The notes under the pieces: generated by a model
Databases searched by the model: none
Seen by the model: only the letters and a program-made list of their open reading frames with translations
Told to the model about the DNA's origin: nothing
Translations under genes and position numbers: made by a program
Shown here: positions 9,616 to 28,404 of the stretch, in pieces
Numbering within the stretch: position 1 is the stretch's first letter
Layout: each line of letters opens with the position of its first letter
From: a bacterium
Lineage (GTDB): Bacteria > Lernaellota > Lernaellaia > JACKCT01
Direction: 5' to 3'
Assembly: GCA_019912885.1 (NCBI GenBank)
Contig: JAIOHV010000203.1
Location: forward strand, 1,885-65,884
DNA length: 64,000 bases

Positions 9616-9645
9616 CCATTAGCACAGGGATTTTCGCATTGTCAA
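9616..9645 (-). promoter_or_regulatory. Candidate sigma70-type promoter for pal (TTGACA-N18-TAATGG on the minus strand)
   Basis: Read on the minus strand within the 195-nt cpoB-pal spacer; leaves a ~125-nt leader ending in a GGAGG RBS. Confidence 0.3.
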
Positions 9646-9683
9646 CCAGAAATCGCGTCTTTTTGCGGGCTTTTTACCGCGAA

Positions 9684-10490
9684 TTACTTCTTCAACAACT
9701 GAAGCTTTTTCGCCGCTATCTTGGCTTCCTCGGTGCCCGGATAGTCCGACATGACCTTCTCATAGAAGAGTTTTGCATCAAATTTCTGCCCCATCTTTTC
9801 AAAGGCCATCGCCTGATTCAGCGCCGCTTTCGGGGCTTGTTTGCTCTTGGCCCACCGCGTCACGACCTCGTCGTAGGCGAGGATCGCGTCCGAATATTTG
9901 TTCTGCCTAAAAAGGCTCTCGCCGACGTAGAATTGCGCCTCGGGCGCGTGTTCCGACTGCGGAAACTTTTTTAGAAAATCCTCGAATTTTTTCTGCGCTT
10001 CGCCAAAACGGGACTTTTTGAACGAGAGCACCGCCTCCTCGAACTGGTCTTTTTCGGGTTTGTCCTTGACGATCAGGCCGCCCGGGCTCGCCGGAACCGA
10101 GGCGATCGCCGGTCCCGGCGCGATCCCCGCCTTGCGCTCGAGTTCAGTGAGCCGCTTGTCGATCTTTTCGAATTGCAGGTCCAGATACTTTCGCAGCGTG
10201 TCGTATTCCTTCGCCTGGCGCTCCTTGGCGAACTGGGCTTCGTCGAACGCGCCCTTCATCGCTCCGAACTCCTGCTGCATGTTGTCGAAGTAGACCTGCT
10301 GCTCGGCGATCTGGCCGATGTTGCGGTCGAGCACATCCTTGGTGTCCTGCGCGACGCGCTTGACCTCGGCGAGCTCGCGCTCGATCTCGGACTGGCGCTG
10401 CTTGTCGGCCTGCGTCGTGATGCAGCCCGACGCCAGAACAAGGGCCAGGACGACGGCAAAAAGACGAGAAACGTTCATTCGGGCGGTCAT
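9684..10490 (-). CDS. cpoB: Tol-Pal system protein YbgF/CpoB (coiled-coil plus TPR)
   Basis: Signal peptide MTARMNVSRLFAVVLALVLASGC from ATG with a GGAGG RBS; long coiled-coil; C-terminal TPR (FYVGESLFRQNKYSDAILAYDEVV). Confidence 0.75.
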   Translation of the reverse strand: MTARMNVSRLFAVVLALVLASGCITTQADKQRQSEIERELAEVKRVAQDTKDVLDRNIGQIAEQQVYFDNMQQEFGAMKGAFDEAQFAKERQAKEYDTLRKYLDLQFEKIDKRLTELERKAGIAPGPAIASVPASPGGLIVKDKPEKDQFEEAVLSFKKSRFGEAQKKFEDFLKKFPQSEHAPEAQFYVGESLFRQNKYSDAILAYDEVVTRWAKSKQAPKAALNQAMAFEKMGQKFDAKLFYEKVMSDYPGTEEAKIAAKKLQLLKK

Positions 10491-10491
10491 C

Positions 10492-12000
10492 TCAATCCTC
10501 CGGCAGCGGGCTCCAGTCGGGGCTCGCATCGAACGACGTGCCTTTTGTGATCGGTTTCGTGAACGTGTCGTTGACCGTGCGGATGAACAGCGCGCGGCCG
10601 GTGTCCGTCTCGCACGAAAACACAAGCGCGCGCCCGTCCGGCGAGAACGACGGGTATTCGCAGTTGGGCTTCATGTCCGCGGTGAGCGCGTACGGCTCGC
10701 CGCCGTATTCGTCGATGACGTAGATCGTGTAGTGCCAGTATTCGCGCGCGGCGTACGCGATCTTGTTGCCTTTGGGCGACCAGGCGGGCGACTGGTTGTA
10801 CCCGCCGAAAAAGCTGATGCGCACCGGGTTCGATCCGTCGGCCCCCATGCGATAGACCTGCGGGGAGCCGGGGCGATCCGACACGAACAGCATGTTTTGC
10901 CCGTCGGGGCTGTAAGTCGGATAAAGGTCGATCGACCAGTTTTTCGTCAGGTTTTTCAGGTTGCCGCCGTTGACGTCCATCTCGTACACGTCGGTCGAAA
11001 CGCCGAGCGATATTCCCGCCGCGATGCGCGTGCCCGACGGCGAAAAATCCGGCGTCAGCACGACGCCCTGGTCGATGCCGTAGATTTTTTTCGCCTTTCC
11101 GGATTCTACGTCAACGATGTATAGCGACGGTTGCGTCACATCGCTCGACGCCGCAAACACGATCGACTTGCCGTCCGGGCTCCATCGGGGTGTCATGGCC
11201 AACACGCCGAGGTTCGTCAGGCGACGGCGATTGCGTCCATCCAGATCGACGACGTACACCTCGCGCTGGTTCTTGGTGCCCGAAACGTAGGCGAGGCGCG
11301 AGCCGAAAAAGCCCTTGTTGCCGAACAGCGAAAGCAGAACCTCATTCGCGAACAGGTGGATCATGCGGTAGTAGTCGTCCGCCTTGCCGGAATACTCCTT
11401 GCCCATGACCAGGCTCTCGGTACCGACGTTGTATAGCCGCGCGGTGATCGTCAGGCTTTCGCCCGCGCGCTTGTACGAGCCCTTGATGAGGTATTCGACG
11501 CCGATGATCTTCCAGTCGCTAAACGAGAAACTGCCCGGCTTCACGCCCGCGCTGCGGGGGTCTTCCAGGTAGCGTGCGCGGTCGGCGACCTCGAATTCGC
11601 CGCTCATCTCCATGTCTTCGGTCAGAAGGTCCGCGAGTTTATGCGACAGATCGTCGAAACCCGTTTCCGACTCGGCGAAAAACTCGGGGATCGCCATGGA
11701 AATCTTCTGGATCGTCGTGCCATAGATCTTGGACGGCGTGATGACGCCGCCTTCGACCGGGCCGCCTTCCGTGCCGGATCCGGGCGCCGGCGGCGGGCCG
11801 CCCTCTGGAGGCGGTGTCGTCTGGGCCAAGGCCGGTGCGGCGGATAACGCCATGAAAAGACTAAGGAAAATCGCGATTATGACGTGGACCGTGGCCGGCG
11901 GGGGCGAGGCGGTCCGCAATCTTAAGGGCATCATGTCTCCCGGTTCGATCGTCGCGCGCGCATTTTGAGGTTTTTGCGCGCGTTGTAAACCGGCGCCCAA
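10492..12000 (-). CDS. tolB: Tol-Pal system beta-propeller protein TolB
   Basis: 502 aa; N-terminal TolB domain plus repeated beta-propeller blades (SPDG..I.F.S.R.G..ly). Confidence 0.9.
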   Translation of the reverse strand: MGAGLQRAQKPQNARATIEPGDMMPLRLRTASPPPATVHVIIAIFLSLFMALSAAPALAQTTPPPEGGPPPAPGSGTEGGPVEGGVITPSKIYGTTIQKISMAIPEFFAESETGFDDLSHKLADLLTEDMEMSGEFEVADRARYLEDPRSAGVKPGSFSFSDWKIIGVEYLIKGSYKRAGESLTITARLYNVGTESLVMGKEYSGKADDYYRMIHLFANEVLLSLFGNKGFFGSRLAYVSGTKNQREVYVVDLDGRNRRRLTNLGVLAMTPRWSPDGKSIVFAASSDVTQPSLYIVDVESGKAKKIYGIDQGVVLTPDFSPSGTRIAAGISLGVSTDVYEMDVNGGNLKNLTKNWSIDLYPTYSPDGQNMLFVSDRPGSPQVYRMGADGSNPVRISFFGGYNQSPAWSPKGNKIAYAAREYWHYTIYVIDEYGGEPYALTADMKPNCEYPSFSPDGRALVFSCETDTGRALFIRTVNDTFTKPITKGTSFDASPDWSPLPED

Positions 12001-12018
12001 TCGCCTGGCGGGCGCGCG

Positions 12019-12783
12019 TCAGTTTGCTTCTTTCGGCTTGAACGTGAACGAGATGCCGCCGGCCAGTTTTCCGTGCAGCTCCGACGGCGGGCGGGAGAAT
12101 GGCACGGCGTTTGACACCGCCTGGCGAATGCTCGCGTCGAGCGAAGGGTCGCCGGACGACTTGATCGCGACGCCGATGAGGTTGCCGGCCGCGTCGATCT
12201 TCACCGTGGCGGGGATGCTTTTGTCGCGAAGCTCCGCCGGCATTCCGGGCGGCAGTTTCCAGCGCGAGCGGATTTTTTCGCGAACGCCCGCGAGATAGAG
12301 CTTTTCGATCGACGGGCGCGTGCCGGCTTCGCCTTCGCCGCCGCCGCCGGCCTGAGCCTTGCGCCGCAAATCCTCGATGCGTTTTCGGGCGAGTTCCTCC
12401 TGGACGCGGGTTTTGGCGGATCGCTGCTTGACGGTCGATTTCACCTTGGGTTTGGGCGCGACGTTTTCCGGCATGTCCTCGGTTTTCGTCGCGGTCTGTT
12501 TGACCTCGCGCTCGAACGGGTTGAGCGCGGTCTTGCGCACTTCCGGCACCGGATCCGCGCCGACCGATCGCCCCTTGGGCAGGTCCGCAAGATCGAACAC
12601 GAGCGGTTGATCGGGCGGGGGAGGCGGCGCGTTTCCGACCGTAACCGCGACGAAGATCGCATACGCCACGAAAAACCCGACGTGAGTGAGGATCGACGCG
12701 AACCACATCGCGCCGAAAAGGCGGCCGAACGGATCGGGGCGCGGCGGGTTGTAGCGCGGGACGGCGGCCAGGCGGTAGGTCAT
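12019..12783 (-). CDS. tolA: TolA (TonB/TolA-type energy transducer: TM anchor, Pro/Lys-rich linker, TonB_C-like C-terminus)
   Basis: N-terminal TM FASILTHVGFFVAYAIFVAV; PPPPPD; charged helical linker; C-terminal IDAAGNLIGVAIKSSGDPSLD. Confidence 0.65.
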   Translation of the reverse strand: MTYRLAAVPRYNPPRPDPFGRLFGAMWFASILTHVGFFVAYAIFVAVTVGNAPPPPPDQPLVFDLADLPKGRSVGADPVPEVRKTALNPFEREVKQTATKTEDMPENVAPKPKVKSTVKQRSAKTRVQEELARKRIEDLRRKAQAGGGGEGEAGTRPSIEKLYLAGVREKIRSRWKLPPGMPAELRDKSIPATVKIDAAGNLIGVAIKSSGDPSLDASIRQAVSNAVPFSRPPSELHGKLAGGISFTFKPKEAN

Positions 12784-12802
12784 CGCGCGCGTCGCGCGGC
12801 CC

Positions 12803-13231
12803 TTACGGGCCCGCGTTCCCCTTGGGCAGGGTTTTCAGGCCGAGCTGCTCGACGCCCGCGGCTTTGGCCTCGGCGATCGCCGCCACCACGACGCCGTAAT
12901 CGACGGCCGTGTCGGCCTCGACGAAGATGCGTTTTTCGGCCTTGCCCTCGTACAGCTTGCGGAGTTCCTCGCGCAGCGCTTCCCTGGCGATAGGCGTCTT
13001 GCCGATGAATATCCGCCCCTCGGCGTCAATCGACAGGCGCACGTCTTCCTCCGCGGACTCGATCTTCTTGCCTTCCGCCGCGGGGAGATTGACGCCGATG
13101 CCTTCCTGCATGAGTGGCGCGGTAACCATGAAGATCACGAGCAGCACCAGCATGACGTCGACCATCGGCGTCACGTTGATGTCACTCATCATGTCGCGGC
13201 GCCGGCCGCTGGATCCGACGCTCATGCCCAT
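12803..13231 (-). CDS. tolR: TolR/ExbD biopolymer transport protein
   Basis: MMSDINVTPMVDVMLVLLVIFMV signature; an alternative start is ATG at 13192. Confidence 0.85.
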   Translation of the reverse strand: MGMSVGSSGRRRDMMSDINVTPMVDVMLVLLVIFMVTAPLMQEGIGVNLPAAEGKKIESAEEDVRLSIDAEGRIFIGKTPIAREALREELRKLYEGKAEKRIFVEADTAVDYGVVVAAIAEAKAAGVEQLGLKTLPKGNAGP

Positions 13232-13238
13232 CGGACAC

Positions 13239-13350
13239 CAGAAAACAGAAAAGAGGAAAGAGAAAAGAGAGTCACGACGTGCGACCTTTCAGGAAAATTT
13301 TCCCGATTGCGATTCATTCCGCATTCCGCATTCCCAATTCCCCATTCATT
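13239..13350. other. Unusually long (170 nt) tolQ-tolR spacer containing a polypurine tract and (CATTCC/GGAATG)-type repeats
   Basis: cagaaaacagaaaagaggaaagagaaaagagag (13239-13271) and gattcattccgcattccgcattcccaattccccattcatt (13311-13350). Confidence 0.6.
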
Positions 13351-13400
13351 AACCAATGGACGCCGAACGAATCGACTCGGTTCCGCGCCTTCACACCAGC

Positions 13401-14165
13401 CTAAAGGATATGCCGGTCGATGATATTCAGGAAGTCCGCCGTGAAGGCGTCCATTTCGCCTTCCAGGACGCGGATCTTGTTGTTGAAATGGTTGAAAAAA
13501 ATGACGGCGGGGATCGCCGCGAAAAGGCCGATGGCGGTCGCGACGAGCGCCTCGGAGATGCCGGGCGCGACGACGGTCAGGCTCGCGGAGCCTTTTTGCC
13601 CGATGTCGTGGAAACTGATCATGATGCCCCAGACCGTGCCGAAAAGGCCGATGAACGGCGACGTATTGCCGCACGTGGCCAGAAACGGAATCGCGCGCTC
13701 CAGGCGCGTGATTTCGGCGACCGTGGTGCGGCGCAGCGCGCGGGCGATGTTCTCGCGCGCGGCCTCTTTTTTCGTGACGCCGCCTTTTGGCGATGTGCCC
13801 GCGGTCATGGTGATTTCGGTTTGCTGCCCGGTGTCGCGGAAACGCTCGAGCTCGCGGTAGCCCGCGCGGTACAGCTCGCCAAGCGGCGTCAGCGTCAGGT
13901 CGCGCGAAGCCCGGTAGATCTCGTCAAGCTGGCGGGACTCCCAGAAGAGCTTGAGGAAGACCTCCGACTCGCGGGCGGCTTTCCGCAGGGTCAGCCCCTT
14001 CAGGAAGATGATCGCCCAGCTCGTGACGGAAAAAACCAGGAGCAGCAGCATGACGAATGTCACCACCGGGCCCGCGTTCTTGATCACCTCGACGATGTTG
14101 AACGCGGACGGGCCGGTGGAATCCAACGGCTGCGTGACGGCCAAAAGGGCCAGGGAAAGTTTCAT
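13401..14165 (-). CDS. tolQ: TolQ/ExbB proton-channel protein (MotA/TolQ/ExbB family)
   Basis: 3 TM; conserved C-terminal half PFIGLFGTVWGIMISFHDIG...SLTVVAPGISEALVATAIGLFAAIPAVIFFN. Confidence 0.85.
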   Translation of the reverse strand: MKLSLALLAVTQPLDSTGPSAFNIVEVIKNAGPVVTFVMLLLLVFSVTSWAIIFLKGLTLRKAARESEVFLKLFWESRQLDEIYRASRDLTLTPLGELYRAGYRELERFRDTGQQTEITMTAGTSPKGGVTKKEAARENIARALRRTTVAEITRLERAIPFLATCGNTSPFIGLFGTVWGIMISFHDIGQKGSASLTVVAPGISEALVATAIGLFAAIPAVIFFNHFNNKIRVLEGEMDAFTADFLNIIDRHIL

Positions 14166-14505: not shown

Positions 14506-15768
14506 ATGAATGCAAGGCTCATGCTCGCGTTGTTTTGCACCGCCGCCGTGTTCGCGCTTGTCGTCGGGTTCGCGTGCGTTCCGGGCGACGATGATGACGA
14601 CGACGATGACGACGACGACGATGACGACGACGAACTTCCCACCGAAAGCATCAAGACCATCGAGGCGATCGCCGTCGGCGACGACGCGGGCCGATACAAG
14701 AACGGCCGATGGAGCCCGGACGGCGACGTGCCCGCCGAGGCCCTGCCGCTTTCGACAATCGATTTTCGCGGCCCGGATTTCGGGTTCGCGGCCGGCGTCG
14801 GGCGCATCCTGCAATACGAAGACGGCGAATGGACCGGCGCCGCGGCGCCGATCGAGCCGGACCTCGATGTCCGCCGCATCCTGATCCACCCGGACGGCCG
14901 CGTGTTCGCGTTCGGTAACCGCGGCGTCGATTCCGGCGGCGTGCTGGTCACGCGCGGGCTCGACGGAATCTGGACGCGCGACGACCTGTCGAGTCTGACC
15001 TCCGACGGCGTTTTCATTCGCGACGCGATGCTCTCGGACGAGGGCGTCATCCTGCTCGTCACCGTGAACCTCTCCGCTTACCTGTACATGGCCGGCGGGG
15101 TCGCACCCGCGTCGGTGCAGGTCTATGCGTTCGATCCGACGAATTTCCTCACATACAACGCCATCGGCCGGTTGTTCGACGGGCGCATCCTGCTTGGCGG
15201 CTGGCGCAGCGACGGCATCAACCGCTTCGGATTCGTGATGGTGGAGGACGGGCTGGGCGGCTACATGCCGTTCGAACTCCCCGCGAGCGACTGCCCGGTG
15301 CAGGAAGTGCATCGCTTCGAATCCATCGCGCTCGCCACGTTCATGGTCGGCAAGTGCGTCCGGTCGGTGCTGTACGCATACGAGCAACCGGCGTGGACGG
15401 AGATACCGCTGCCTGGCAGCAAAGGCGCGGATTGGCGCATCAACGACCTCGGCTTCATCTCGCGGCGCGAAGGATTCGCGGTGGGTTATGACGACACGTC
15501 CGACGACCTGCTTACGCTGATTCGCGAGCCGAACGGCTGGGTGCTGATGGAGCCGTACGAGGGTGACACCCCGGGCCGGCGCCTGAATGCCGTCGCCGTC
15601 TGGCCGGCGGGCGCGTCGCTCGACGATGACGACACCGCGGACGACGATTCGCTCGATGACGACACTTCCGATGACGACACGGCCGATGACGATACCGCGG
15701 ATGACGACACCGCGGATGACGACACGCTCGATGATGACACGGGAGACGACGATACGGTGGGTTCGTGA
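14506..15768 (+). CDS. Secreted/lipoprotein hypothetical protein with N-terminal poly-Asp (D16) and C-terminal (DDDTA)n repeats
   Basis: ATG at 14506 after a GGAGAG RBS; signal/lipobox MNARLMLALFCTAAVFALVVGFAC; D-run; C-terminal 15-nt x ~8 repeats encoding DDDTADDDS.... Confidence 0.55.
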   Translation: MNARLMLALFCTAAVFALVVGFACVPGDDDDDDDDDDDDDDDELPTESIKTIEAIAVGDDAGRYKNGRWSPDGDVPAEALPLSTIDFRGPDFGFAAGVGRILQYEDGEWTGAAAPIEPDLDVRRILIHPDGRVFAFGNRGVDSGGVLVTRGLDGIWTRDDLSSLTSDGVFIRDAMLSDEGVILLVTVNLSAYLYMAGGVAPASVQVYAFDPTNFLTYNAIGRLFDGRILLGGWRSDGINRFGFVMVEDGLGGYMPFELPASDCPVQEVHRFESIALATFMVGKCVRSVLYAYEQPAWTEIPLPGSKGADWRINDLGFISRREGFAVGYDDTSDDLLTLIREPNGWVLMEPYEGDTPGRRLNAVAVWPAGASLDDDDTADDDSLDDDTSDDDTADDDTADDDTADDDTLDDDTGDDDTVGS

Positions 15769-17214: not shown

Positions 17215-18132
17215 GTGCGTATCGTGATCGCCATCTTCACGTGGATTTTCACGCGGCCGTCGTGGGAGCGCTCCGAGATCTGGGGCGAGCGGATCGGCCG
17301 GCTTATGTGGCGGGTCGGCATCCGCAAGCGCGTCGTCATGGACAATCTTCACCTGGTATTCGCCTCCGATACGACGCCCGAGGGCCATCGAAAAGACGAC
17401 GCCGAGCTCGCCGCGATCTGCCGCGCGGTGTACGAAAACCTCGGCCGTCTCATCGTGCTCTATTTCCGCACCGACCTCATGGACGCGGCGTTTTTTCGCG
17501 ACCGCTTCGAGGCGGAGGGGATGGAACATCTGCGCGACGGAATCGCCAGGGGGCGCGGCGTTCTCGGCATCGGCATGCACTTTGGCATCCTCGATATCGC
17601 GATGGGCAAGGCCGCGCACGAGCTCGACGCGCCGATTACGCTCGTCGGCAAAAACATCAAGAATCCCGTCGTCAACAACTGGTTTATCGAATCGCGCCGG
17701 CGCATGCGTTTCGATACGGTCGGCCCCAAGGACACACGCCAGGAAATTCTGACGCGGCTTGGCCGCAACGAGCTTGTGACGATGGTGCTCGATCAGAGCA
17801 TGCGCGAGCGCTACGCGATTTACGTCAACGTCATGGGACGCCTGACCGCGACAAACAAGTCCGCCGCCGGGCTTGCGCGCGATTCCGGAGCGACGGTCGT
17901 TCCGGGCTGGGCGTATCGCGTCGGCCCCGCGCGCTACCGCCTGGTCGCCCAGCCGCCCATCCCGTACATCACGCATGACGACCCCGACGAGGAGCGGCGG
18001 CTCAACACGCAGGCGTACGTCGAACGCCTGGACGCGGCGATCCTCGAGAATCCGGAGCACTGGTTCTGGCTGCACCGAAGGTGGAAGCGGGTAAAGGAGA
18101 TCGAGGATCGAAAATCGAAGATTGAAGATTGA
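17215..18132 (+). CDS. Lipid A biosynthesis acyltransferase, LpxL/HtrB (lauroyl/myristoyl) family
   Basis: GTG start; 305 aa; matches the general LpxL-family layout (N-terminal anchor, ~300 aa). The extreme C-terminus KEIEDRKSKIED is encoded by a heptamer repeat element. Confidence 0.65.
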   Translation: MRIVIAIFTWIFTRPSWERSEIWGERIGRLMWRVGIRKRVVMDNLHLVFASDTTPEGHRKDDAELAAICRAVYENLGRLIVLYFRTDLMDAAFFRDRFEAEGMEHLRDGIARGRGVLGIGMHFGILDIAMGKAAHELDAPITLVGKNIKNPVVNNWFIESRRRMRFDTVGPKDTRQEILTRLGRNELVTMVLDQSMRERYAIYVNVMGRLTATNKSAAGLARDSGATVVPGWAYRVGPARYRLVAQPPIPYITHDDPDEERRLNTQAYVERLDAAILENPEHWFWLHRRWKRVKEIEDRKSKIED

Positions 18133-18185: not shown

Positions 18186-19271
18186 CTACTGCCTGACTTT
18201 CACCAGTCCCACCAATCCCCCAAGTCCGAATATCACGTGGCTGCCCCAGGCGGCGGCGACAGGCGGCAGGGCGCCGGATTTGCCGAGCGCAAGGCCAAGG
18301 CCGAGCACGATCCAGTAAACGACGCCGATGACGACGGCGATGCCGACTCCAAGCGCGATGCCGCCGGAACGGCCGATCCGCACGGCGAACGGCACGCTGA
18401 GCATCGCCATGATGACGGGCACGAGCGGAAACGCGAGCTTGCCCTGCATGTCCACGCGATAGGACGTGGTGTCGTAACCCTTTTCCTCCAACTCGCCGAC
18501 AAGCGCGGCCAGTTCGCGGTAGCTCATCGTCTCGGGGTCTTTCTGATAGATCTTCATCTCCTCGGGCGTTTCGTCGAGATCGATCGCAAGCGTCTCGAAC
18601 GGGGTGGACGACGCGATGCGGCCTTCCGCGAATCGCCACGCAACACCGGACACCAGCTCCCAGTGATCGCCCGCGTAGCGCGCCGTTTCGGCGATCGCGC
18701 GCTCGGCCAGGTGAAAATTTTCGTCGAAGCGATACAGGCGCACGTCGCTGATCTTGCCCTGTTCCGGGACAAACAGGCCGAACGAATAGATGGTCTCCCC
18801 GCTTTTGTAATAGACGTTCTGCTTGCGGTATTTGACGCGCCAGACCTGTTTTTTGATTTGCACCTTGTAGATGTATTCGCGCGTCTCGTTCGCGCGCGGC
18901 ACGACGTATTCGTTGATCAGGAACGCGCCGCCGGAAATCAACGCGGACAGTGCGAGAATCGGCGCGCAGGCGCGCAGGATCGGCACGCCGCCGGCCTTGA
19001 TCGCGGTGATCTCGCTGCCGCGCGCAAGGCCGATGAGCGAAAGCAGCGCGCCGAGCAGGCACGCCACGGGCACGATCTGAAAAAGAATCAGCGGCATCTT
19101 GTAGAGGAAATAGAGAGCCACCGCCGTAAGGGGGGGATCGCTCTTGAAAATCTGGCTCGACCGCTCGATGAAATCGACGACGATGTAGATGACGACAAAA
19201 CCCGAAAGGCAAAGCGCGAACATGCGCGCGAATTGCGCGCCGATGTAGCGATCGAGCACGCGAAGGCGCAT
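18186..19271 (-). CDS. lptG: LPS export ABC transporter permease LptG (YjgP/YjgQ family)
   Basis: ATG (MRLRVLDRYIGAQFARMF) overlaps the lptF stop (TGATG); 6 TM plus a periplasmic beta-jellyroll. Confidence 0.8.
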   Translation of the reverse strand: MRLRVLDRYIGAQFARMFALCLSGFVVIYIVVDFIERSSQIFKSDPPLTAVALYFLYKMPLILFQIVPVACLLGALLSLIGLARGSEITAIKAGGVPILRACAPILALSALISGGAFLINEYVVPRANETREYIYKVQIKKQVWRVKYRKQNVYYKSGETIYSFGLFVPEQGKISDVRLYRFDENFHLAERAIAETARYAGDHWELVSGVAWRFAEGRIASSTPFETLAIDLDETPEEMKIYQKDPETMSYRELAALVGELEEKGYDTTSYRVDMQGKLAFPLVPVIMAMLSVPFAVRIGRSGGIALGVGIAVVIGVVYWIVLGLGLALGKSGALPPVAAAWGSHVIFGLGGLVGLVKVRQ

Positions 19272-20476
19272 CAGCGCTCCGGCCGCGTGCCGGCCCGGCG
19301 GCGAAACAGACCGCGCACCCGCGCGGCGGCGCGCACGATGGCGGCCAGGAACCACACCTCGCGATCCTCGCTTTTTCGCCAGAGCAGATAAAAACCGATC
19401 GCGGCAAACAGCGCGTTCGGCGCCCACATCGCGACAAACGGATGCACCACGGCTTTCCATCCGAGATTCTCGCCGACGCGGAACATGAGGTAGTAGAGGC
19501 AAAGCGCGACGATGGCGAACGTGAACCCCTGCCCGCGGCCCGAGCGGGGCGGCACGACGCCAAGCGGCATGCCGATAAGCCCGAACACGACGCACGCGAA
19601 CGGAAACGCGAACCGGCGGTGATACTCCACCCAGGCGCGGCGCATTTCGCGCTCGTCCTCGCCTTCTTGACGAAGCCGGGCGACGTGCTCTTTCAGGTCG
19701 CCGACCGACATTTCGAGATACGACCGCTCGGGCGCGTCGGCGGAAAACGATCGCGACACGTCGATCGCGACATCGTACTTCGAGAAGGTCGCCTGCTCGT
19801 AGGCGCGTGGATCCTTCATCGTGCGATGGACCGCGCCGTCCGTCAGGCGGATGACGAGCGTCGCCTCCTTGTCCTCGGCCGCGGCGACGCGCCCCTTGCG
19901 CGCAACGATGATGTTCGGCGCTTCCGGGATGCGTTCGTCGAAGATGAAGATGCCGTCGAGTTCGTTCTTCTTTTTGTCCACCTCCTCGACGTAGATGACG
20001 AAATCCTCGAACCGATCCTGAAACACGCCCGCGGCAATGCCGAGCGTCGCGTGCTTGCGGCCGGTTTCGATCAGCATCTCGCGGAATCGTTCCTTCCCCC
20101 AGGATTCGGCCTTCAGCGTCATGACGGCCGTCGCCGCGCCGACCGCGAGCGACAGCGCGAGAATGGGCGGATAGATGCGCGTCAGGCTCACGCCCGCGGC
20201 CTTGAGGGCCACGAGTTCGGAGTCGGACGACATTCGCCCGACCGCCAGGATCACGGCGAGGAGGTACGCCATCGGCAACGTAAAGACGAAAAACGGAGGC
20301 AGGATGTAAACAAGGACAAGGAACACGTCGGTCACGGCGATGCCGTATTGCACGACCATCTCCGTGATCTTCAGGATCTGGAACATGAGAAGGACGAAGG
20401 TGAAAATCACGACGCCGAGGATAAACGGAACGAGCACCTCGCGCCCGACGTAACGATGCACGATCCTAAGCGACAT
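19271..20476 (-). CDS. lptF: LPS export ABC transporter permease LptF (YjgP/YjgQ family)
   Basis: MSLRIVHRYVGREVLVPFILGVVIF; paired with lptG. Confidence 0.8.
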   Translation of the reverse strand: MSLRIVHRYVGREVLVPFILGVVIFTFVLLMFQILKITEMVVQYGIAVTDVFLVLVYILPPFFVFTLPMAYLLAVILAVGRMSSDSELVALKAAGVSLTRIYPPILALSLAVGAATAVMTLKAESWGKERFREMLIETGRKHATLGIAAGVFQDRFEDFVIYVEEVDKKKNELDGIFIFDERIPEAPNIIVARKGRVAAAEDKEATLVIRLTDGAVHRTMKDPRAYEQATFSKYDVAIDVSRSFSADAPERSYLEMSVGDLKEHVARLRQEGEDEREMRRAWVEYHRRFAFPFACVVFGLIGMPLGVVPPRSGRGQGFTFAIVALCLYYLMFRVGENLGWKAVVHPFVAMWAPNALFAAIGFYLLWRKSEDREVWFLAAIVRAAARVRGLFRRRAGTRPER

Positions 20477-20593
20477 GGCGCGCGAGTCTAGGCGCTTTTC
20501 CCGTACGCGGAAAGAAAGCGCGGGCCGCGCGCCGGATCAATTGCCCGCGGCGCGAGGCGCGGCGATAATGGCGCGCCACTTCCCCGGGATTTC

Positions 20594-21604
20594 ATGAGCC
20601 GTCCGTCGTTTTTTCACCGCATTTGGCGCAACCGCCGAAACCTGTTGATTCTCGCCGGGTGCGTCGTTTTTCTGGAGATCGTGTTGCGTTTCGTCTTTCC
20701 CGTTCAGGACGAGACGTATTTCTATCGCCGTCCCGGCGACGACAATTACGTCGAGGACCGCGAACTGTTCTGGGTGCCCGGAGATCGTTATGCGTCGCAA
20801 TGGAGCGTTGTCGACGCGACGCCCGCCGCGAATCTGATCTACACGTTCGGCGGGTCGATCGCCACGGAATGCTGCGGGGCCACCACGAATTTCAGCCGGA
20901 TCGTCGACGAAAAGCTGCCGGACTTTCGCGTGGCGAATATGGCCACCGCGGGATTTACGTCGTTTCAGTCGCGCCGCCTGCTTGAACGCGCGTTCAAACG
21001 CAAGCCGGCGCGCGTCACGTTGTTTTGCCACGCGTTCAACGACATGGGGCCCGCCTACCATACCGACAAGGAAATGTGGATTCGCAATCAGCGGTTCTCG
21101 ACAAAGGCCCAGTGGTTTCTCATGCGTTTGAAAACCCTGGCGTTGCTGCGTCGCGGGATTCGCGCCGCGCGCGGGTTTGATCCCTACGCCGGCGATCCGC
21201 GGCCGGCGCGCGTGACGCCCGCGGAATATTGGGAAAACCTCGCCGGCGCCGCCAAACACGCCACACGGTTCGGCGGACGGGTCGTCTTTGTCACGCAGGG
21301 GTACGCGGACGCCTATTCCAATCGCGCCGCCGAGCCTTATTTCAAGGAAATGCGGCGGATCGCCGAGGCGATGGATCGCGTGGAATTCATGGACGTGCGC
21401 CCGGTGATCGAGGCGCGGATCGTGGAGAAATTCGGCGCGGTGCCCGAGCTTTACGATTTCAATCGGCTGGCCGTGCACACCGACTATTGCCACCTCACCG
21501 ACGAAGGCCACGCTCTCGTTGCCGACTTGATCGTCTCGTTCTTGCGCGCCAAGGGCTACGCGCGGCCGGCGACGCCGACGAATTCCTCGCCCGGAGCTTC
21601 GTGA
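20594..21604 (+). CDS. Membrane-anchored SGNH/GDSL-type hydrolase (paralog 1)
   Basis: N-terminal TM; block I TFGGSIATECCGA; C-terminal D-x-x-H (CHLTDEGHALV). Confidence 0.55.
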   Translation: MSRPSFFHRIWRNRRNLLILAGCVVFLEIVLRFVFPVQDETYFYRRPGDDNYVEDRELFWVPGDRYASQWSVVDATPAANLIYTFGGSIATECCGATTNFSRIVDEKLPDFRVANMATAGFTSFQSRRLLERAFKRKPARVTLFCHAFNDMGPAYHTDKEMWIRNQRFSTKAQWFLMRLKTLALLRRGIRAARGFDPYAGDPRPARVTPAEYWENLAGAAKHATRFGGRVVFVTQGYADAYSNRAAEPYFKEMRRIAEAMDRVEFMDVRPVIEARIVEKFGAVPELYDFNRLAVHTDYCHLTDEGHALVADLIVSFLRAKGYARPATPTNSSPGAS

Positions 21605-22623
21605 TCGGCGCCTCGCTCGAAACGCCCACGGCCCGCCGGCGACGCGGATGGCTCATCCTCGCCGGAGTCGTGTTCATGCTGGAGTTTGCGTTGCGCGTGA
21701 TTTTTCAGGGAGCCGATGACACCTATTTCTATCGAGAGCGCGGCGACTCGGGATACCGGGAGGATCGTGAATTGTTTTGGGTGCCTCGAGACCGGTACGC
21801 GTCCCAATGGCGCGTCGCCGATCAAACACCGGCGGATTCCCTGATTTACACGTTCGGAGGATCGATCGTCACCGACTGCTGCGGGGCCACGACGAACTTC
21901 AGCCGCATGGTCGACGAACGGCTCCCCGGGTGGTCGGTGGTCAACTTCGGTACCGTCGGTTTCACGTCATTCCAGTCCGCTCATTTGCTGGACCGCGCGT
22001 TTACCCGCAAACCCGCGCGCCTCGTGTTTTTCTGCCACGGATTCAACGACATCGGGCGCGGATTCGCCGCCGACCGGCGGATGTATGCTCGCAATCAGCG
22101 GCATGCGACGTGGTTTCAGTGGCTGCTGATGCGTTCGAAGATCCTCGCGACCTTTCGGCGTGGCCTGCGTGCCGCGAGCGGATTCGATCCGCACGCGGAC
22201 AATTCGTCGCGACCGTCACGCGTATCCCTCGAAGACTTTTTGGAAAATCTGACCCACGCGGCCACGCGGGTCGCCCAGTCCGGCGGGCAAATCGTGTTCA
22301 TCACGCAAGCATTTCCCGACGCCCATCGGAATCGAGAGGTGGCCCCGTATTTCGCGGCCATGAAAACCGTCGCCGCGAGCGTCGATGGAGCGATGGTGCT
22401 TGATGTTCGCCCGTCCATCACCGCAAGGATCGAGGAGGCCTTCGGCGACGTACCGGAGTCTCTCACCCCGGGCCGACTGCACATGCACACCGACCTTTGC
22501 CACCTCACCGACGAAGGCCACGCTCTCGTTGCCGACTTGATCGTTTCATTCCTGCGCGCCAAGGGCCTCGCGCGGCCCGCGGCATCAGCGCCGCGAACAG
22601 GGACGCCCGAACCGCGACCCTAA
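21601..22623 (+). CDS. Membrane-anchored SGNH/GDSL-type hydrolase (paralog 2, tandem duplicate)
   Basis: GTG overlaps the paralog 1 stop; same motifs (TFGGSIVTDCCGA; CHLTDEGHALV); a near-identical ~65-nt 3-prime block is shared with paralog 1. Confidence 0.55.
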   Translation: MIGASLETPTARRRRGWLILAGVVFMLEFALRVIFQGADDTYFYRERGDSGYREDRELFWVPRDRYASQWRVADQTPADSLIYTFGGSIVTDCCGATTNFSRMVDERLPGWSVVNFGTVGFTSFQSAHLLDRAFTRKPARLVFFCHGFNDIGRGFAADRRMYARNQRHATWFQWLLMRSKILATFRRGLRAASGFDPHADNSSRPSRVSLEDFLENLTHAATRVAQSGGQIVFITQAFPDAHRNREVAPYFAAMKTVAASVDGAMVLDVRPSITARIEEAFGDVPESLTPGRLHMHTDLCHLTDEGHALVADLIVSFLRAKGLARPAASAPRTGTPEPRP

Positions 22624-22659
22624 GGAACGGGGTAGCCCCGCGCCGACACGATCCGCGTC

Positions 22660-23484
22660 TCATTCGCCAAGATCCACCGCATCGAGTTCCCGCGCGATGT
22701 CGATATCGCCCGTGTAGACCTTCCGCGCTCTGGCCAGAAACTCGTCTGGGTCCGCGGCGGGCGCCAGGTGCGTCAGGCGCACGCGTTTCGCATTCGCGGC
22801 AGCGGCCGCCTCGCCCGCCTGCTCGGGCGTCAGGTGCATGGGATACGCGCCGGTCGTACCGGCTTCGCAAATGAACAGATCCGCGTCGCGCGCCAGCTCG
22901 ATGAGCGCGTCGCACGGCCCGGTGTCGGCGGAAAAGGCGATCACGGCGCCGCCCGACTCGATGCGGTAGCCGAAAGTCGGATCGCGATGCGAAACCGCGT
23001 GCGGCGTGACGCGGCATCCCGCGATATCCACCGCCAAATTCGGCGCAAGTTCCCGGATGTCGAGCGCCGGAATCTCATCGAGAAGATCGGGATCGCCGAA
23101 CTTCGGGAGCAGCGCGACAAGCCCGGCGATTCCCGGCGGCCCCGCGATCGTCATCGGCGCCGTTCTCATTTTCGTGACGCGCAGAGCGAAGAAAAACGGC
23201 AGCAGACCGGCGACGTGGTCGGGGTGCGTGTGCGTGACGAGGATCGCGTCCACGCGCTCGATCGGCACGTTCGCCCCGACAAGCCGCCGAACCGCGCCTT
23301 CGCCGCAATCGACCAGCAACGCGCCGCCCGCGGACTCGACGAGCGTCGCCGGCCCCGCCTTGTCCGCCTCGGGAAACCAGGAGCCGACGCCAAGGAACGT
23401 GACGCGCAATCGGAGCGAATCGCCCTGGCTTTCGCTTCGTCGTTCGTCGTGCAAATTCTCCCGCATATCGACACCCGATTGCAT
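22660..23484 (-). CDS. MBL-fold metallo-hydrolase (RNase Z/beta-lactamase-like)
   Basis: This is the C-terminal 274 aa of an 899-aa GC-artefact ORF; LVDCGEG, HTHPDH and downstream His/Asp motifs; start at ATG 23484 (MQSGVD). Confidence 0.7.
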   Translation of the reverse strand: MQSGVDMRENLHDERRSESQGDSLRLRVTFLGVGSWFPEADKAGPATLVESAGGALLVDCGEGAVRRLVGANVPIERVDAILVTHTHPDHVAGLLPFFFALRVTKMRTAPMTIAGPPGIAGLVALLPKFGDPDLLDEIPALDIRELAPNLAVDIAGCRVTPHAVSHRDPTFGYRIESGGAVIAFSADTGPCDALIELARDADLFICEAGTTGAYPMHLTPEQAGEAAAAANAKRVRLTHLAPAADPDEFLARARKVYTGDIDIARELDAVDLGE

Positions 23485-23814: not shown

Positions 23815-25719
23815 ATGGGAAAAATCATTGGAATTGATCTTGGCACGACGAACTCCGTCGTCGCCGTCATGGAAGGCAACGAGCCGCGCGTCATCACGAA
23901 CGCGGAGGGAGGGCGCGTCACGCCGTCCGTCGTGGCGTTCACGAAAGACGGGGAGCGGCTTGTGGGGCAGCTCGCCAAGCGCCAGGCCGTCAGCAACCCG
24001 GAGCGCACGGTTTATTCGATCAAGCGCTTCATGGGCCGCCGGTACGACGAAGTGAACGAGGAGGCCCGCATGGTCTCCTACAAGGTCATCCGCACGGAAA
24101 ACGGCGATGCCCGCGTGCAGGTCGGCGACAAGCAGTATTCGCCGCCCGAAATCTCCGCGATGATCCTGCAAAAGCTCAAGAGCGCGGCGGAGGACTATCT
24201 CGGCCAGACGGTGAACGAGGCGGTCATCACCGTGCCGGCGTATTTCAACGACGCGCAGCGACAGGCGACCAAGGACGCCGGCAAGATCGCCGGGCTCGAC
24301 GTCAAGCGCATCATCAACGAGCCCACGGCGGCGGCGCTCGCCTACGGCATGGACAAGAAGAAAGACCAGACCATCGCCGTGTACGACTTCGGCGGCGGCA
24401 CGTTCGACGTGTCGATCCTGGAGGTCGGCGAGAATGTCGTGGAGGTCAAGTCGACCAACGGCGACACGCACCTTGGCGGCGATAACCTCGACCATCGCGT
24501 CGTGGACTGGATCATTCAGGAGTTCAAGAAAGACCAGGGCATCGACCTGTCCAGGGACGCGATGGCGCACCAACGCCTGCGCGAGGCGGCGGAAAAAGCG
24601 AAGATCGAGCTTTCCTCCACCATGGAGACGCAGATCAACCTGCCGTTCGTCACCGCCGACGCGACGGGGCCCAAACATCTGGACCTCAAGCTGACGCGCA
24701 GCAAATTCGAGCAGCTTGTCGGCGACCTGCTCGAAAAGACGCTCGAGCCGTGCCGCAAGGCGCTGCGCGACGCGAAGATGTCGCCGTCGGACATCCACGA
24801 GGTGATCCTCGTCGGCGGCTCGACGCGCATCCCCAAGGTTCAGGAGTACGTCAAGGAACTGTTCGCGCGCGAGCCGCACAAGGGCGTGAACCCGGACGAG
24901 GTCGTCGCGGTGGGCGCGGCGGTGCAGGGCGGCGTGCTCGCGGGAGACGTGAAGGACGTGCTTCTGCTTGACGTGACGCCGCTTTCGCTCGGCATCGAAA
25001 CGCTCGGCGGGGTCATGACGCGGCTCATCGAACGCAACACGACGATCCCGACGCGCAAGAGCGAGATCTTCTCGACCGCGGCCGACAGCCAGACGAGCGT
25101 GGAGATTCACGTATTGCAGGGCGAGCGCGAAATGGCGCGGGACAACCGAACGCTCGGCAAATTCCACCTGGTCGGCATTCCGCCGGCGCCGCGCGGCGTT
25201 CCGCAGGTTGAGGTGACGTTCGACATCGACGCCAACGGGATCGTTTCCGTGTCGGCCAGGGACAAGGCGACCGGCAAGGAGCAAAAGATCACCATCACGG
25301 CGAGCTCGGGACTGTCCGACGACGACGTGAAGAATATGGTGAAAGACGCCGAGGAACACGCCGACGAGGACAAGAAGCGGCGCGAGGAAATCGAGTTGCG
25401 CAACAAGGCCGATTCGCAGGCCTACGCGATCGAGAAGATGCTGAAGGAAAACGAGTCCGCGATCGACGCGCCCGAACGCGAATCAATCACGGCGGCCATC
25501 GCCGACGTGCGCGGCGCGCTCGAGGGCGATGATGTCGAGGCGATCCGCGCCAAACTCGGCGCGCTCGAGGCCGCGAGCCACAGGCTTGCGGAGGCCATGT
25601 ACAAGAAGGCAAGTCAGGAGCAGCAGCCGGGCGCGGAGCCGGGCGCGGGCGGCGGCGCCAAGGCCGGCGCGGGTCACGGCGACGACGTCATCGACGCGGA
25701 GATCGTTGACGAGAATTGA
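23815..25719 (+). CDS. dnaK: Molecular chaperone DnaK (Hsp70)
   Basis: [40 protein letters not shown]; AGGAGA RBS. Confidence 0.95.
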
Positions 25720-25777
25720 CGCATTGCCGATAACGGGCGAGCGGCGGCCGAACATCGGTCAACGCAAGGAGGACGCC

Positions 25778-26191
25778 ATGACGCGGGAATCGCAGGATCT
25801 GGTCGGGCTCACCAAGGAGCTTCAGCAAAAGATCCGCGCCCGTGTGACCGCCGCGGCGGGTATCGCCGCCGGCGCCGGAGGCGCGGACGAACCCGCGTGC
25901 GATGTCGTCGAGACGCCCGACGCGTATATCCTTGCCATCGAGTTTCCGGGCATCGATCCCGATAGCGTCGAGATCGACGTGAAGGATCGGACCGTGCGCG
26001 TCACGGCGACATCCAGGCCGGATGGGGTGAATCGCGAAACGCGGCAGGCGATCCGCGTCGATCGTGGCGCCGACAAGTGGGTACGTTCGGTGGAATTGCC
26101 GCAACAAGTCGAAGCCGGGACGGGTAAGCGTTCGTACGACAACGGCGTTTTACGCGTCACGTTGTCCAAGTCGGCGTCCGGCGGGCGCTGA
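25778..26191 (+). CDS. Small heat-shock protein, Hsp20/alpha-crystallin family
   Basis: AAGGAGG RBS; alpha-crystallin domain (AYILAIEFPGIDPDSVEIDVKDRTVRVTA...YDNGVLRVTLSK). Confidence 0.8.
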   Translation: MTRESQDLVGLTKELQQKIRARVTAAAGIAAGAGGADEPACDVVETPDAYILAIEFPGIDPDSVEIDVKDRTVRVTATSRPDGVNRETRQAIRVDRGADKWVRSVELPQQVEAGTGKRSYDNGVLRVTLSKSASGGR

Positions 26192-26229
26192 GCGAAAATT
26201 TCGCGCCCGGCCGCGAGCCGGAACGGGTC

Positions 26230-26260
26230 CGCGCCGGGGGTCGGCGCGGGCCATTTTGCT
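26230..26260 (+). terminator. GC-rich hairpin plus U-tract between hsp20 and the J-protein gene (attenuator or terminator)
   Basis: cgcgccg-ggggt-cggcgcg followed by ggccattttgcttg. Confidence 0.35.
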
Positions 26261-26287
26261 TGTGGGCCCATTGAGTTTGTGAACGAA

Positions 26288-27220
26288 ATGGAAACCGGAA
26301 AACGCGATTATTACGAAGTTCTCGGCGTGCCGCGCGGCGCGTCGGACAAGGACATCAAGACCGCGTATCGCAAGCTCGCGCGCGCGTGCCATCCGGATTT
26401 TCATCCAAACGACCAAAACGCGGAGCGCAAGTTCAAGGAGTTGAACGAGGCGTACGCGGTGCTGTCGAACGACGAGGCGCGGAAAAAATACGACCAATGG
26501 GGACACGCCGGCGGGCCGTCGGCAAACGGGCAGGGGTTCGATTTCTCGAATTTCGATTTCTCGCACGGCGCGGGATCGTTTTCGGGCTTCGGCCAGACCT
26601 ATCAGTCCTCGGGTTTCGACGACATCATCAACGAGCTCTTCGGCGGCATGCGTGGACGCGGCGCAAAACGAACGGGTTTTGGGGCGGGGCGTCAGGCGCG
26701 CGGGCGCGATATCGAGTCGGAACTGGCGATCGAATTCAGCGATGCCATCCACGGCGCGAAAAAAACCGTGAATCTCGAATGGCCCGACGGCGCGCGGACG
26801 ATCAGCTTCAACGTTCCGGCGGGCGTCACGGACGGAACGCGCATCCGTGTGCCCGGCAAGGGGCTGGCCGGCACGGGCGGCGCGGGCGATCTGTATGTCC
26901 GCCTGCGGGTAAAGCCGGACCCGCGATTTTCGCGCGACGGCGACCACCTCCGCACGAGCGTGGGGATCAGCATCGCCGAGGCGGTGTGCGGCGCGAAGAT
27001 ACCGGTGCCGACGCCCGAGGGGCCGACAACCATTTCCATCCCGCCCGGAACGCAGGGCGGGCAGGTGTTTCGCGTCGCCGGCAAGGGCGTGCGACGCAAA
27101 TCCGGGCCCGCGGGCGACCTTTTGGTGACGATCAAGATCGTCGTCCCCAGGGACGTCGGCGAGGCGGGCCGCGAGTTGATTCGACGGTTTGACGGAGAGC
27201 ATCCCGTTCGCGCGCGATAG
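26288..27220 (+). CDS. J-domain cochaperone (DnaJ class II/CbpA-like; no zinc-finger CxxCxGxG repeats)
   Basis: J-domain DYYEVLGVPRGASDKDIKTAYRKLARACHPDF (HPD); G/F-rich region; C-terminal substrate-binding domains; no Cys repeats. Confidence 0.8.
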   Translation: METGKRDYYEVLGVPRGASDKDIKTAYRKLARACHPDFHPNDQNAERKFKELNEAYAVLSNDEARKKYDQWGHAGGPSANGQGFDFSNFDFSHGAGSFSGFGQTYQSSGFDDIINELFGGMRGRGAKRTGFGAGRQARGRDIESELAIEFSDAIHGAKKTVNLEWPDGARTISFNVPAGVTDGTRIRVPGKGLAGTGGAGDLYVRLRVKPDPRFSRDGDHLRTSVGISIAEAVCGAKIPVPTPEGPTTISIPPGTQGGQVFRVAGKGVRRKSGPAGDLLVTIKIVVPRDVGEAGRELIRRFDGEHPVRAR

Positions 27221-27246
27221 CGCGGCGGCCAGGAGGAAAGCGTTTC

Positions 27247-27837
27247 ATGAGTGTGTACGACGAAAGCGGGAATACCCGCGATGAGCATCCGGTTGACGTC
27301 GGTCCGTCCGACGCGCCGTCGGAGGAAGAACAGGTGGCCGCGATCGAGAAGGAAGGCCTCGAGGGCGAATCGACCGATGACGCCGCCGCATTGAAGTCGA
27401 GGGAGCAGGAGTTGCTTGACCATCTTCAGCGCCTGATGGCGGAATTCGACAACTACAAAAAGAAAAACGCGCGCGAATATGAACGTGGCGTCGCTCGCGG
27501 TGTCGAAAAGGTCGTTTTGGCCTTGTTGCCGGCCTGGGATAGCCTGCGTCTTGCGTCGGAGGCCGCCCGCACGGCGACAGATGCCGAAGCGATCGGGAAG
27601 GGTGTCGAGGCGGTGACGCGACAAATGCAGACGGCGTTGGAGTCGATCGGCGTCGCGGAGATCTGTCCCGAACGCGGCGACAGGCTCGATCCGGCGCTGC
27701 ACGACGTGATGCTCGCCCAGCCGACCGACGATTTCGAACCGGATGCCGTCATCGAGACGTTTCAATCCGGTTTTCGCCTTGCGGATCAGGTGATCCGTCC
27801 GGCGAAGGTCAAGGTCGCGCGCGCAACCGACGCCTGA
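27247..27837 (+). CDS. grpE: Nucleotide exchange factor GrpE
   Basis: LLDHLQRLMAEFDNYKKKNARE; C-terminal GFRLADQVIRPAKVKV. Confidence 0.9.
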   Translation: MSVYDESGNTRDEHPVDVGPSDAPSEEEQVAAIEKEGLEGESTDDAAALKSREQELLDHLQRLMAEFDNYKKKNAREYERGVARGVEKVVLALLPAWDSLRLASEAARTATDAEAIGKGVEAVTRQMQTALESIGVAEICPERGDRLDPALHDVMLAQPTDDFEPDAVIETFQSGFRLADQVIRPAKVKVARATDA

Positions 27838-27856
27838 AACCCCAGGAGGCCATCCG

Positions 27857-28360
27857 ATGTCCGACCCGAAGGAAAAAGACGAATTGAAGGTCACGGACAA
27901 GCGCCGATTCACGCAACAAGGTGAACCGGTGGCGTCCCCGGCACGCGAGGAAAAACCGAAACCGGCCGCGCCGACCGAGCCGCCCAAAGGCAAGGACATG
28001 CCGGCGGGGACCGGCACGCGTCCGGAACCCTATGAGGGCGCGGGCGAGGCCGAGGCGCGTCACGCTTACGCGCAACATTCGCCGGGCCATGCCCAGGCGA
28101 GCGGGCAGCCGATCAACTTCGACACGCTCGTCTTTTCGCTCGCGAGCCAGGCGATGATCTTCCTGGGCGACGTTGCGGACGACGAGGGCAAGCGCCACAC
28201 GGACCCCGCGCTCGCGCGCCAGATGATCGACCTGCTTGGCATCCTCCGCGAAAAAACGCGCGGCAACCTGTCGCCGGACGAGGATCGGTTTCTCGGGGAC
28301 ACGCTGCGCGACCTTCGCCTTCATTTCGTCGCCGTGACCGGCGCGAAGGGGCAAACGTGA
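27857..28360 (+). CDS. DUF1844-family protein embedded in the heat-shock operon
   Basis: 167 aa; Lys/Pro-rich N-terminus, then INFDTLVFSLASQAMIFLGDVADDEG, characteristic of DUF1844. Confidence 0.55.
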   Translation: MSDPKEKDELKVTDKRRFTQQGEPVASPAREEKPKPAAPTEPPKGKDMPAGTGTRPEPYEGAGEAEARHAYAQHSPGHAQASGQPINFDTLVFSLASQAMIFLGDVADDEGKRHTDPALARQMIDLLGILREKTRGNLSPDEDRFLGDTLRDLRLHFVAVTGAKGQT

Positions 28361-28404
28361 CCCCGCAAAACGAAAAAGCCATGACAAATGCCGAGGAGAA
28401 AAGA

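Follow-up and report, generated by a model that had tools for sequence, protein, structure and literature searches.

Introduction

Gene conversion between paralogs is a well-known process in bacteria, and tufA/tufB in Salmonella and the ribosomal RNA (rRNA) operons are examples of such interparalog (ectopic) exchange. Here we describe a tandem pair of genes for membrane-anchored SGNH hydrolases (SGNH paralogs 1 and 2, referred to as gene 1 and gene 2) that lie beside lptFG in a 64-kb stretch of bacterial DNA (the window: positions 1,885 to 65,884 of contig JAIOHV010000203.1, assembly GCA_019912885.1; coordinates are window positions unless a locus is named, see Table 1), and that carry towards their 3' ends a patch of near-identity which, judging from the sequences, was most probably produced by gene conversion between the two copies. 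As in tufA/tufB and the rRNA operons, a short and sharply bordered tract of near-identity with reduced synonymous divergence is embedded in diverged paralogs. Unlike in those systems, the tract is only about 100 bp long, the paralogs are 65% identical and a single patch is seen instead of sustained concerted evolution of whole genes. The mechanism is an ordinary one, and a literature search for surveys of bacterial ectopic gene conversion yielded mainly eukaryotic studies.

The closest described proteins are esterases of the SGNH/GDSL superfamily such as Escherichia coli TesA (thioesterase I/lysophospholipase L1, 1ivn), the acetyl-xylan esterase Axe2 (3w7v) and LAE5 (5jd3), which have the same four blocks (Ser, Gly, Asn and Asp-x-x-His) as the window proteins and the same fold (Foldseek probability 1.00, target-normalised template-modelling scores of 0.62-0.78). 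The window proteins differ from this superfamily by a G-G-S in place of G-D-S, by an extra N-terminal membrane helix, by a hairpin peculiar to the family, E-D-x-E-L-F-W, whose Trp60 is invariant, and by a helical insertion (residues ~158-193). Another relative is DUF459 (PF04311), an uncharacterised SGNH-like family that matches 8 of 29 members of the family described here weakly (best E = 7.4e-7), with neither window protein matching at E <= 0.1. These 29 members are the set used throughout for the family alignment, the tree and the Pfam scan.

A first-pass annotation of the locus had proposed that the two proteins act in the deacylation of lipopolysaccharide (LPS) or lipid A or in the handling of O-acetyl groups. 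This proposal shares the theme of ester chemistry on LPS with the lipid A deacylases PagL and LpxR, which are outer-membrane beta-barrels, and with OafA and OafB, acetyltransferases of the O-antigen that are of AT3-SGNH type. Neither type was retained as a candidate. Pfam scans of the window proteins returned SGNH-type families only, and the structural model has one helix and an alpha/beta domain with no beta-barrel, which excludes the PagL/LpxR type, while a length of 336 or 340 amino acids, a single helix and the lack of an AT3 hit exclude an O-acetyltransferase of the OafA/OafB type. PF19040, the SGNH domain that is fused to AT3, gave weak hits in 4 of the 29 family members (best E = 3.8e-4).

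Results

An old and lineage-specific tandem duplication

The locus had been annotated as a tandem pair of paralogs, and the open reading frames (ORFs), the alignment and the paralog phylogeny all bear this out. Upon global alignment, gene 1 and gene 2 were 58-59% identical in amino acid sequence, 65% identical in nucleotide sequence and 51% identical at third codon positions. In a neighbor-joining tree of the family the two were sisters in 100 of 100 bootstraps and the duplication is therefore specific to this lineage, the pair being the product of an old tandem duplication. Estimates by the Nei-Gojobori method outside the patch gave a synonymous divergence (dS) of 1.32 and a nonsynonymous divergence (dN) of 0.38, and the resulting dN/dS of ~0.29 indicates that both copies have been maintained under purifying selection. 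The GTG start codon of gene 2 overlaps the TGA stop codon of gene 1 as GTGA and is preceded by a GGAG at a distance of 5-8 nt, an arrangement from which co-transcription and translational coupling of the two genes are probable.

Both exact proteins are recorded from one 70-kb contig of a metagenome-assembled 'bacterium' at NCBI. The closest relatives are single-copy and distant, with ~40% identity for the two retrieved in a word-indexed protein search and no more than 42% in scans of genomes and metagenomes, and a renewed search with a profile for closer relatives added little.

A sharply bordered patch of near-identity in the two genes

According to the first-pass annotation, the paralogs share a segment of ~65 nt that is almost identical (21490-21556 versus 22499-22565). 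The segment is real, with 64 of 67 bases identical, but the second range was displaced by one base, the true register being +1010 (22500-22566). Its size had also been underestimated, as the patch extends to 88 identical bases of 96 and includes a perfect run of 48 nt. When properly aligned, the patch is thus clearly more similar than the genes as a whole (88/96 versus 65%). Its borders are sharp on both sides: the 60-nt windows just upstream are ~52-62% identical, and downstream the Pro/Ala-rich C-terminal tails of the two proteins cannot be aligned. In 20,000 shuffles of the codon columns no run of at least 48 nt arose (the largest was 41 nt) and the best 96-nt window never exceeded 87 identical bases, compared to 88 in the real alignment (p<5e-5 in these permutation tests).

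The similarity extends to synonymous positions. Where the two proteins have the same residue, the same codon is used at 26 of 30 positions inside the patch versus 85 of 160 outside (Fisher p = 5e-4), and dS falls to 0.18 in the patch from 1.32 elsewhere (Nei-Gojobori). On the basis of dS, codon usage and family-variable positions (see below), the patch is best accounted for by gene conversion from one tandem copy to the other, an explanation that we consider quite likely to be right. The first-pass annotation had named conversion and selective constraint at the nucleotide level as alternatives; the former is favoured by these features and the latter fared poorly, as set out below.

Selection on the protein and codon usage

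A first alternative would dispense with conversion altogether: purifying selection on the protein near the catalytic Asp and His, combined with codon bias in a genome of 64% G+C, might keep the two copies alike. Indeed, the catalytic D-x-x-H motif marks the start of the patch, four residues of the patch (D298, C300, H301 and G306) are strongly conserved across the family alignment, and the baseline chance that identical residues use the same codon is already 53%. However, these four are the only strongly conserved residues in the patch. The perfect run begins only at the Cys-His of D-x-x-H, and most of the patch encodes the helix that follows (ALVADLIVSFLRAKG), which varies across the family, orthologs differing widely in this stretch. 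Past H301, pairwise identity in the family is mostly 0.1-0.3, yet at family-variable columns (pairwise identity <0.25) the paralogs agree in 16 of 17 cases inside the patch versus 80 of 168 outside (p = 1.7e-4). Moreover, the Block I region, which is equally conserved at the protein level, has a dS of 0.88 versus 0.18 in the patch, and several codons common to both copies of the patch are rare in this genome, namely GCT (1% of Ala codons), GTT (9% of Val codons) and TTG (9% of Leu codons).

Two other paralog pairs in the family bear on the same question. One is a tandem pair (L022, 3-1849) with a 4-nt stop/start overlap and 40% identity, and the other (L021, 5001-6095 and 9625-10599) consists of two genes 31% identical and 3.5 kb apart that flank a PMT_2 (GT-C) glycosyltransferase gene. 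Neither pair has a homogenised 3' block comparable to that in the window, so there is no family-wide pressure for identity at this position, and such a pressure on the patch helix was discarded as an explanation. Taken together, selection on the protein with codon bias is an unlikely source of the patch. Aside from this question, the two pairs suggest that duplication is recurrent in the family.

A nucleotide element or an assembly artefact

The conservation of synonymous sites between the copies could also reflect a DNA or RNA element present in both genes, such as a regulatory RNA structure, the target of a small RNA or a site bound by a protein. An RNA element was discarded because folding of both strands of both copies was in no case better than that of dinucleotide shuffles (z = +0.3 to +1.4) and because no Rfam model matched the patch, a scan of 20000-23200 at a permissive threshold having returned a single chance-level hit elsewhere (E = 0.76). 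Furthermore, orthologs do not conserve even the amino acids of this stretch, which argues against a nucleotide element common across genomes, the two copies differ in their position relative to downstream genes, and the 64-kb window contains the core at these two places alone. A nucleotide-level constraint is therefore very improbable. Searches of the window for a third copy or donor of the core (up to 3 mismatches; blastn and tblastn) were negative.

Another possibility concerns the assembly, in that a metagenome assembler may have joined or polished two related sequences, from different strains or separate loci, through a shared k-mer. The window does come from a metagenome-assembled genome (MAG), and each of the two proteins is known from a single contig only. 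Yet a mis-join at the core would have yielded one hybrid gene, not two complete genes with a precise GTGA overlap and unique flanks, and the eight scattered differences and graded borders of the patch are unlike the product of consensus polishing. Likewise, a second tandem pair with a 4-nt overlap is present in an independent metagenome (L022). An artefact of this kind seems to us as improbable as the nucleotide element.

A model for the origin of the patch

Gene conversion would account for the patch by the following steps. After the old tandem duplication, the copies would have diverged to saturation at synonymous sites, until a short, non-reciprocal recombination event replaced ~100 bp towards the 3' end of one gene by the corresponding sequence of its neighbour, most likely when the tandem copies paired out of register as the DNA was replicated or repaired. 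The replaced segment would cover the catalytic Asp/His motif and the C-terminal helix, and only a few substitutions would have accumulated since, leaving the perfect 48-nt core.

Several points weigh against this model. First, the strictest, synonymous-only tests are significant and not overwhelming: in a shuffle conditioned on the identity and type of the amino acid, the longest same-codon run (19) had p = 0.002, and the best window of 30 had p = 0.019. Second, the surrounding identity of ~65% is low for RecA-dependent exchange. Third, searches with proteins and profiles and of genomes and metagenomes retrieved no second genome with both paralogs in which concerted evolution across species, classically the proof of conversion, could be sought, and the sequence is itself that of a MAG.

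The patch offers a clean and well-bounded case of what is most likely a conversion tract, and a very short one, in bacterial paralogs otherwise saturated at synonymous sites, and it calls for caution when duplications are dated or trees built from these genes. We see more potential, however, in the enzyme family, a rare group of membrane-anchored SGNH proteins, than in the patch.

Catalytic residues, predicted fold and membrane anchor

The description of both proteins as membrane-anchored SGNH hydrolases was upheld by a match to Pfam Lipase_GDSL_2 (PF13472), by the predicted fold and by one N-terminal hydrophobic helix in each. Gene 2 scored 48.8 bits against PF13472, above the gathering score of 32.9, and the model matched all 29 family members at E <= 0.01. 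The full SGNH set is present as Ser88, Gly120, Asn149, Asp298 and His301, with Asn149 in an F-N-D motif and Block I reading F-G-G-S-I, in which G-G-S replaces G-D-S. Of these residues, Ser88 is the nucleophile, Gly120 (Block II) and Asn149 (Block III) are those of the oxyanion hole, and Asp298 and His301 make up Block V. Across the 29-member alignment W60, G86, S88, N149, N165, D268 and H301 are invariant, and G87, G120, D150 (in a G/A-F-N-D motif), D298 and G306 are nearly so. The catalytic D-x-x-H is D298-x-x-H301, which reads DYCH in gene 1 and DLCH in gene 2. The near-identical segment had been credited with encoding this motif, and the patch does include it; the DEGH within LTDEGH is not catalytic and represents the usual x-x-G-H that follows the catalytic His.

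An AlphaFold model of gene 2 (predicted local distance difference test score, pLDDT, 90.8; predicted template-modelling score, pTM, 0.87) begins with an extended helix near the N-terminus (residues 10-34), followed by a small hairpin with E-D-x-E-L-F-W and an SGNH core of three alpha/beta/alpha layers, with a helical insertion of ~50 residues (~158-193) after Block III. In a Foldseek search of the PDB with this model, the 50 best matches listed were almost all SGNH/GDSL-type esterases (probability 1.00, 10-19% identity), including LAE5, 3rjt, TesA, Axe2 and rhamnogalacturonan acetylesterase, and a profile search of the PDB agreed in returning generic GDSL esterases (best E = 1e-9). By the criteria of sequence and predicted fold, both proteins thus qualify as members of the SGNH/GDSL superfamily.

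Gene 1 has a basic N-terminus and a hydrophobic helix at about residues 17-35, the best 19-residue Kyte-Doolittle window (2.58) starting at residue 17. Hydropathy peaks at 2.2-2.6 in both proteins and is preceded by RNRRN or RRRR. From the positive-inside rule we infer that this helix would tether the protein to the inner membrane and that the catalytic domain would face the periplasm.

This is a small family: of 1.84 billion cluster representatives, 31 belong to it at E<1e-30. Ten clusters were looked up, nine of which consist of a single sequence and one of two; wherever a source is named, it is a MAG or a metagenome assembly. The family has so far been seen in uncultured bacteria.

Recurrent head-to-head association with lptFG

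Upstream of the pair lie lptF and lptG, and beyond them a homolog of the LpxL-family acyltransferases whose proximity had been noted correctly. By contrast, the placement of the pair immediately downstream of lptF-lptG was mistaken, as lptFG are on the opposite strand and lptF faces the pair head-to-head across 117 bp. Single-copy members of the family are likewise head-to-head with lptF in five other genomes, at L003 (the same place as L001), L004, L006/L010, L007 and L019, and L004 has an LpxL homolog as a neighbour as well. At these linked loci LptF is 55-68% identical to the LptF of the window, compared to only 26-42% for the SGNH proteins. None of the other window genes that we tested (the aminotransferase gene, the gene with a metallo-beta-lactamase (MBL) fold, the dnaK cluster and the Tol-Pal cluster) was found in the linked loci, and the conserved unit in the window and the five other genomes is therefore specifically lptG-lptF/SGNH. 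In the family tree, the lptF-linked members are split between two clades. A lack of lpt genes near the homologs in relatives would have counted against the first-pass annotation, and for this lineage the linkage is present.

On the other hand, the association is not family-wide. There were no lpt genes near ten other members (L002, L005, L009, L012, L013, L015, L017, L018, L020 and L021), and the L022 contig is only 2.7 kb long and hence uninformative on linkage. Several of the unlinked members are near envelope-glycan genes, with MltA, GT2 and GT4 at L002, PMT_2 and GT2 at L020, PMT_2 together with a second family member at L021, a gene with an OmpA domain at L005 and one with a PEGA domain at L018. 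The others have unrelated neighbours.

In the divergent intergenic region, a sigma-70-like consensus match is present on the + strand at 20541-20569, but the promoter and terminator scans gave only weak consensus matches, to which we attach no weight. Separately, alignment of five intergenic regions revealed a motif, G-C-R-A-G-T-N-T-A ... T-T-T-(T/C)-C ... A-A-G as viewed on the + strand, in the ~40 nt directly upstream of the lptF start (20477-20515 in the window, 7879-7920 in L003, 7785-7825 in L004, 7820-7860 in L006 and 7875-7915 in L007). The motif is kept in these five genomes, in which LptF is only 55-64% identical, and the rest of the intergenic region cannot be aligned. Read in the direction of lptF, it includes TAGACT ~9-14 nt before the ATG, and it could be a conserved -10 box, a leader or a translation signal for lptF. 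A further observation comes from the closest lptFG-linked relative (L001, 11521-14120, in JAOSJX010000012.1, a MAG labelled Deltaproteobacteria), which has two lipase genes resembling platelet-activating factor acetylhydrolase (PF03403) at most 1 kb downstream from the SGNH homolog; these make up another group of lipid-ester hydrolases in this neighbourhood.

Candidate functions

The proteins may tentatively be regarded as serine acyl- or acetyl-esterases, or acyltransferases, with an acylated lipid or glycan of the envelope as substrate and the outer face of the inner membrane as site of action. Because the head-to-head arrangement of lptG-lptF with the SGNH gene is conserved in five other genomes, the foremost candidate for the substrate is LPS or lipid A, albeit a doubtful one. 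A role in LPS is thus no more than plausible, the association with lptFG being evidence from gene context. A literature search disclosed nothing that links SGNH enzymes to lptFG or that describes an SGNH lipid A deacylase of the inner membrane.

Several findings speak against reading a defined function into these proteins. Gene 1 alone falls short of the gathering score in its match to PF13472 (E = 9.5e-6, 26.7 bits), neither protein is recognised by any NCBIfam model, the structural neighbours are generic esterases, and the topology derives from the positive-inside rule rather than from a dedicated prediction tool. A specific functional assignment was rejected because there was no NCBIfam hit and because the PDB profile search and Foldseek returned only generic GDSL esterases.

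It is also conceivable that the proteins have no role in LPS and are instead general periplasmic lipases, lysophospholipases or O-acetylesterases of glycans or peptidoglycan, their adjacency to lptFG being inherited synteny without functional meaning. The ten members away from lptFG, several of them beside the GT2, GT4, PMT_2, MltA, OmpA-domain or PEGA-domain genes mentioned above, fit this account, as do nearest structures that include the lysophospholipase TesA and acetyl-xylan esterases. Yet the pair of lptF and the SGNH gene survives head-to-head in six genomes despite the divergence of LptF and in the face of differing other neighbours, and the linked members stem from two separate clades of the family tree. 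We rate this account as falling just short of an even chance.

A bolder proposal is that the family, defined by the N-terminal anchor, the E-D-x-E-L-F-W hairpin and the SGNH domain with its helical insertion, constitutes a new class of LPS-modifying enzymes. Anchored in the inner membrane and facing the periplasm, such an enzyme would edit the acylation or O-acetylation of lipid A or the core just before extraction by LptB2FG, its gene would be regulated jointly with lptFG through one divergent promoter region common to them, and the paralogs would differ from each other in their specificity for substrate or position. As a whole this proposal is improbable. Action on LPS at the inner membrane, if true, would add a new type of enzyme to the remodelling of lipid A and LPS, in which mainly outer-membrane deacylases and inner-membrane transferases have figured so far. 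For this uncharacterised family, the repeated occurrence beside lptFG gives a reasonable lead.

Other genes in the window

Table 1. Features of the 64-kb window discussed in the text
Feature	Position	Strand	Details
SGNH paralog 1 (gene 1)	20594-21604	+	336 aa; MBZ0273937.1; ORF and translation
SGNH paralog 2 (gene 2)	21601-22623	+	340 aa; MBZ0273938.1, locus tag K8I61_18005; recorded with the same GTG start
Patch (probably homogenised), paralog 1 copy	21474-21571	+	perfect 48-nt core 21487-21534; encodes H-T-D-Y-C-H-LTDEGHALVADLIVSFLRAKG-Y-ARPA
Patch (probably homogenised), paralog 2 copy	22484-22581	+	perfect 48-nt core 22497-22544; register to paralog 1 copy +1010
lptF	19271-20476	-	Pfam LptF_LptG E = 1.7e-93; TIGR04407 274.9 bits (cutoff 230)
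lptG	18186-19280	-	Pfam LptF_LptG E = 4.4e-82; TIGR04408 299.4 bits (cutoff 240); overlaps the end of lptF by 10 nt
LpxL/LpxP/HtrB-family lipid A late acyltransferase homolog	17215-18132	+	Pfam Lip_A_acyltrans E = 7.4e-38; below all NCBIfam equivalog cutoffs; convergent with lptG
Divergent intergenic region, lptF start to gene 1 start	20477-20593	.	117 bp; alignment of five intergenic regions
TolQ-like MotA_ExbB	13401-14165	-	
TolR-like ExbD	12803-13231	-	
TolA/TonB_2 C-terminal domain protein	12019-12783	-	
TolB	10492-12000	-	
OmpA-domain Pal-like protein	8826-9488	-	
ORF of 457 aa	14395-15768	+	no Pfam match; hydrophobic N-terminal segment, run of 15 Asp, C-terminal (D-D-D-T-x)n repeat
Metallo-beta-lactamase-fold gene	22660-23436	-	Lactamase_B_2; convergent with SGNH paralog 2
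dnaK	23815-25719	+	
Small ORF, may be Hsp20-like	~25780-26191	+	putative
dnaJ-like	26279-27220	+	by reading of the translation only
grpE	27247-27837	+	
DUF1844	27857-28360	+	
DegP/HtrA protease	28357-29859	+	two PDZ domains

The region is rich in envelope genes, with a Tol-Pal cluster on the - strand (8826-14165), the LpxL homolog, lptFG and DegP. A cluster for heat shock and protein quality control occupies 23815-29859 on the + strand. The MBL-fold gene that converges on gene 2 also gave a sub-threshold match to Apyc1, an anti-Pycsar family, in the N-terminal part of that family (43.4 bits, the cutoff being 50), and this match probably reflects generic similarity to MBL-fold/RNase Z-like proteins. 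Finally, at the DNA level, the (D-D-D-T-x)n repeat of the 457-residue ORF corresponds to a 15-nt unit repeated in tandem at 15624-15756.

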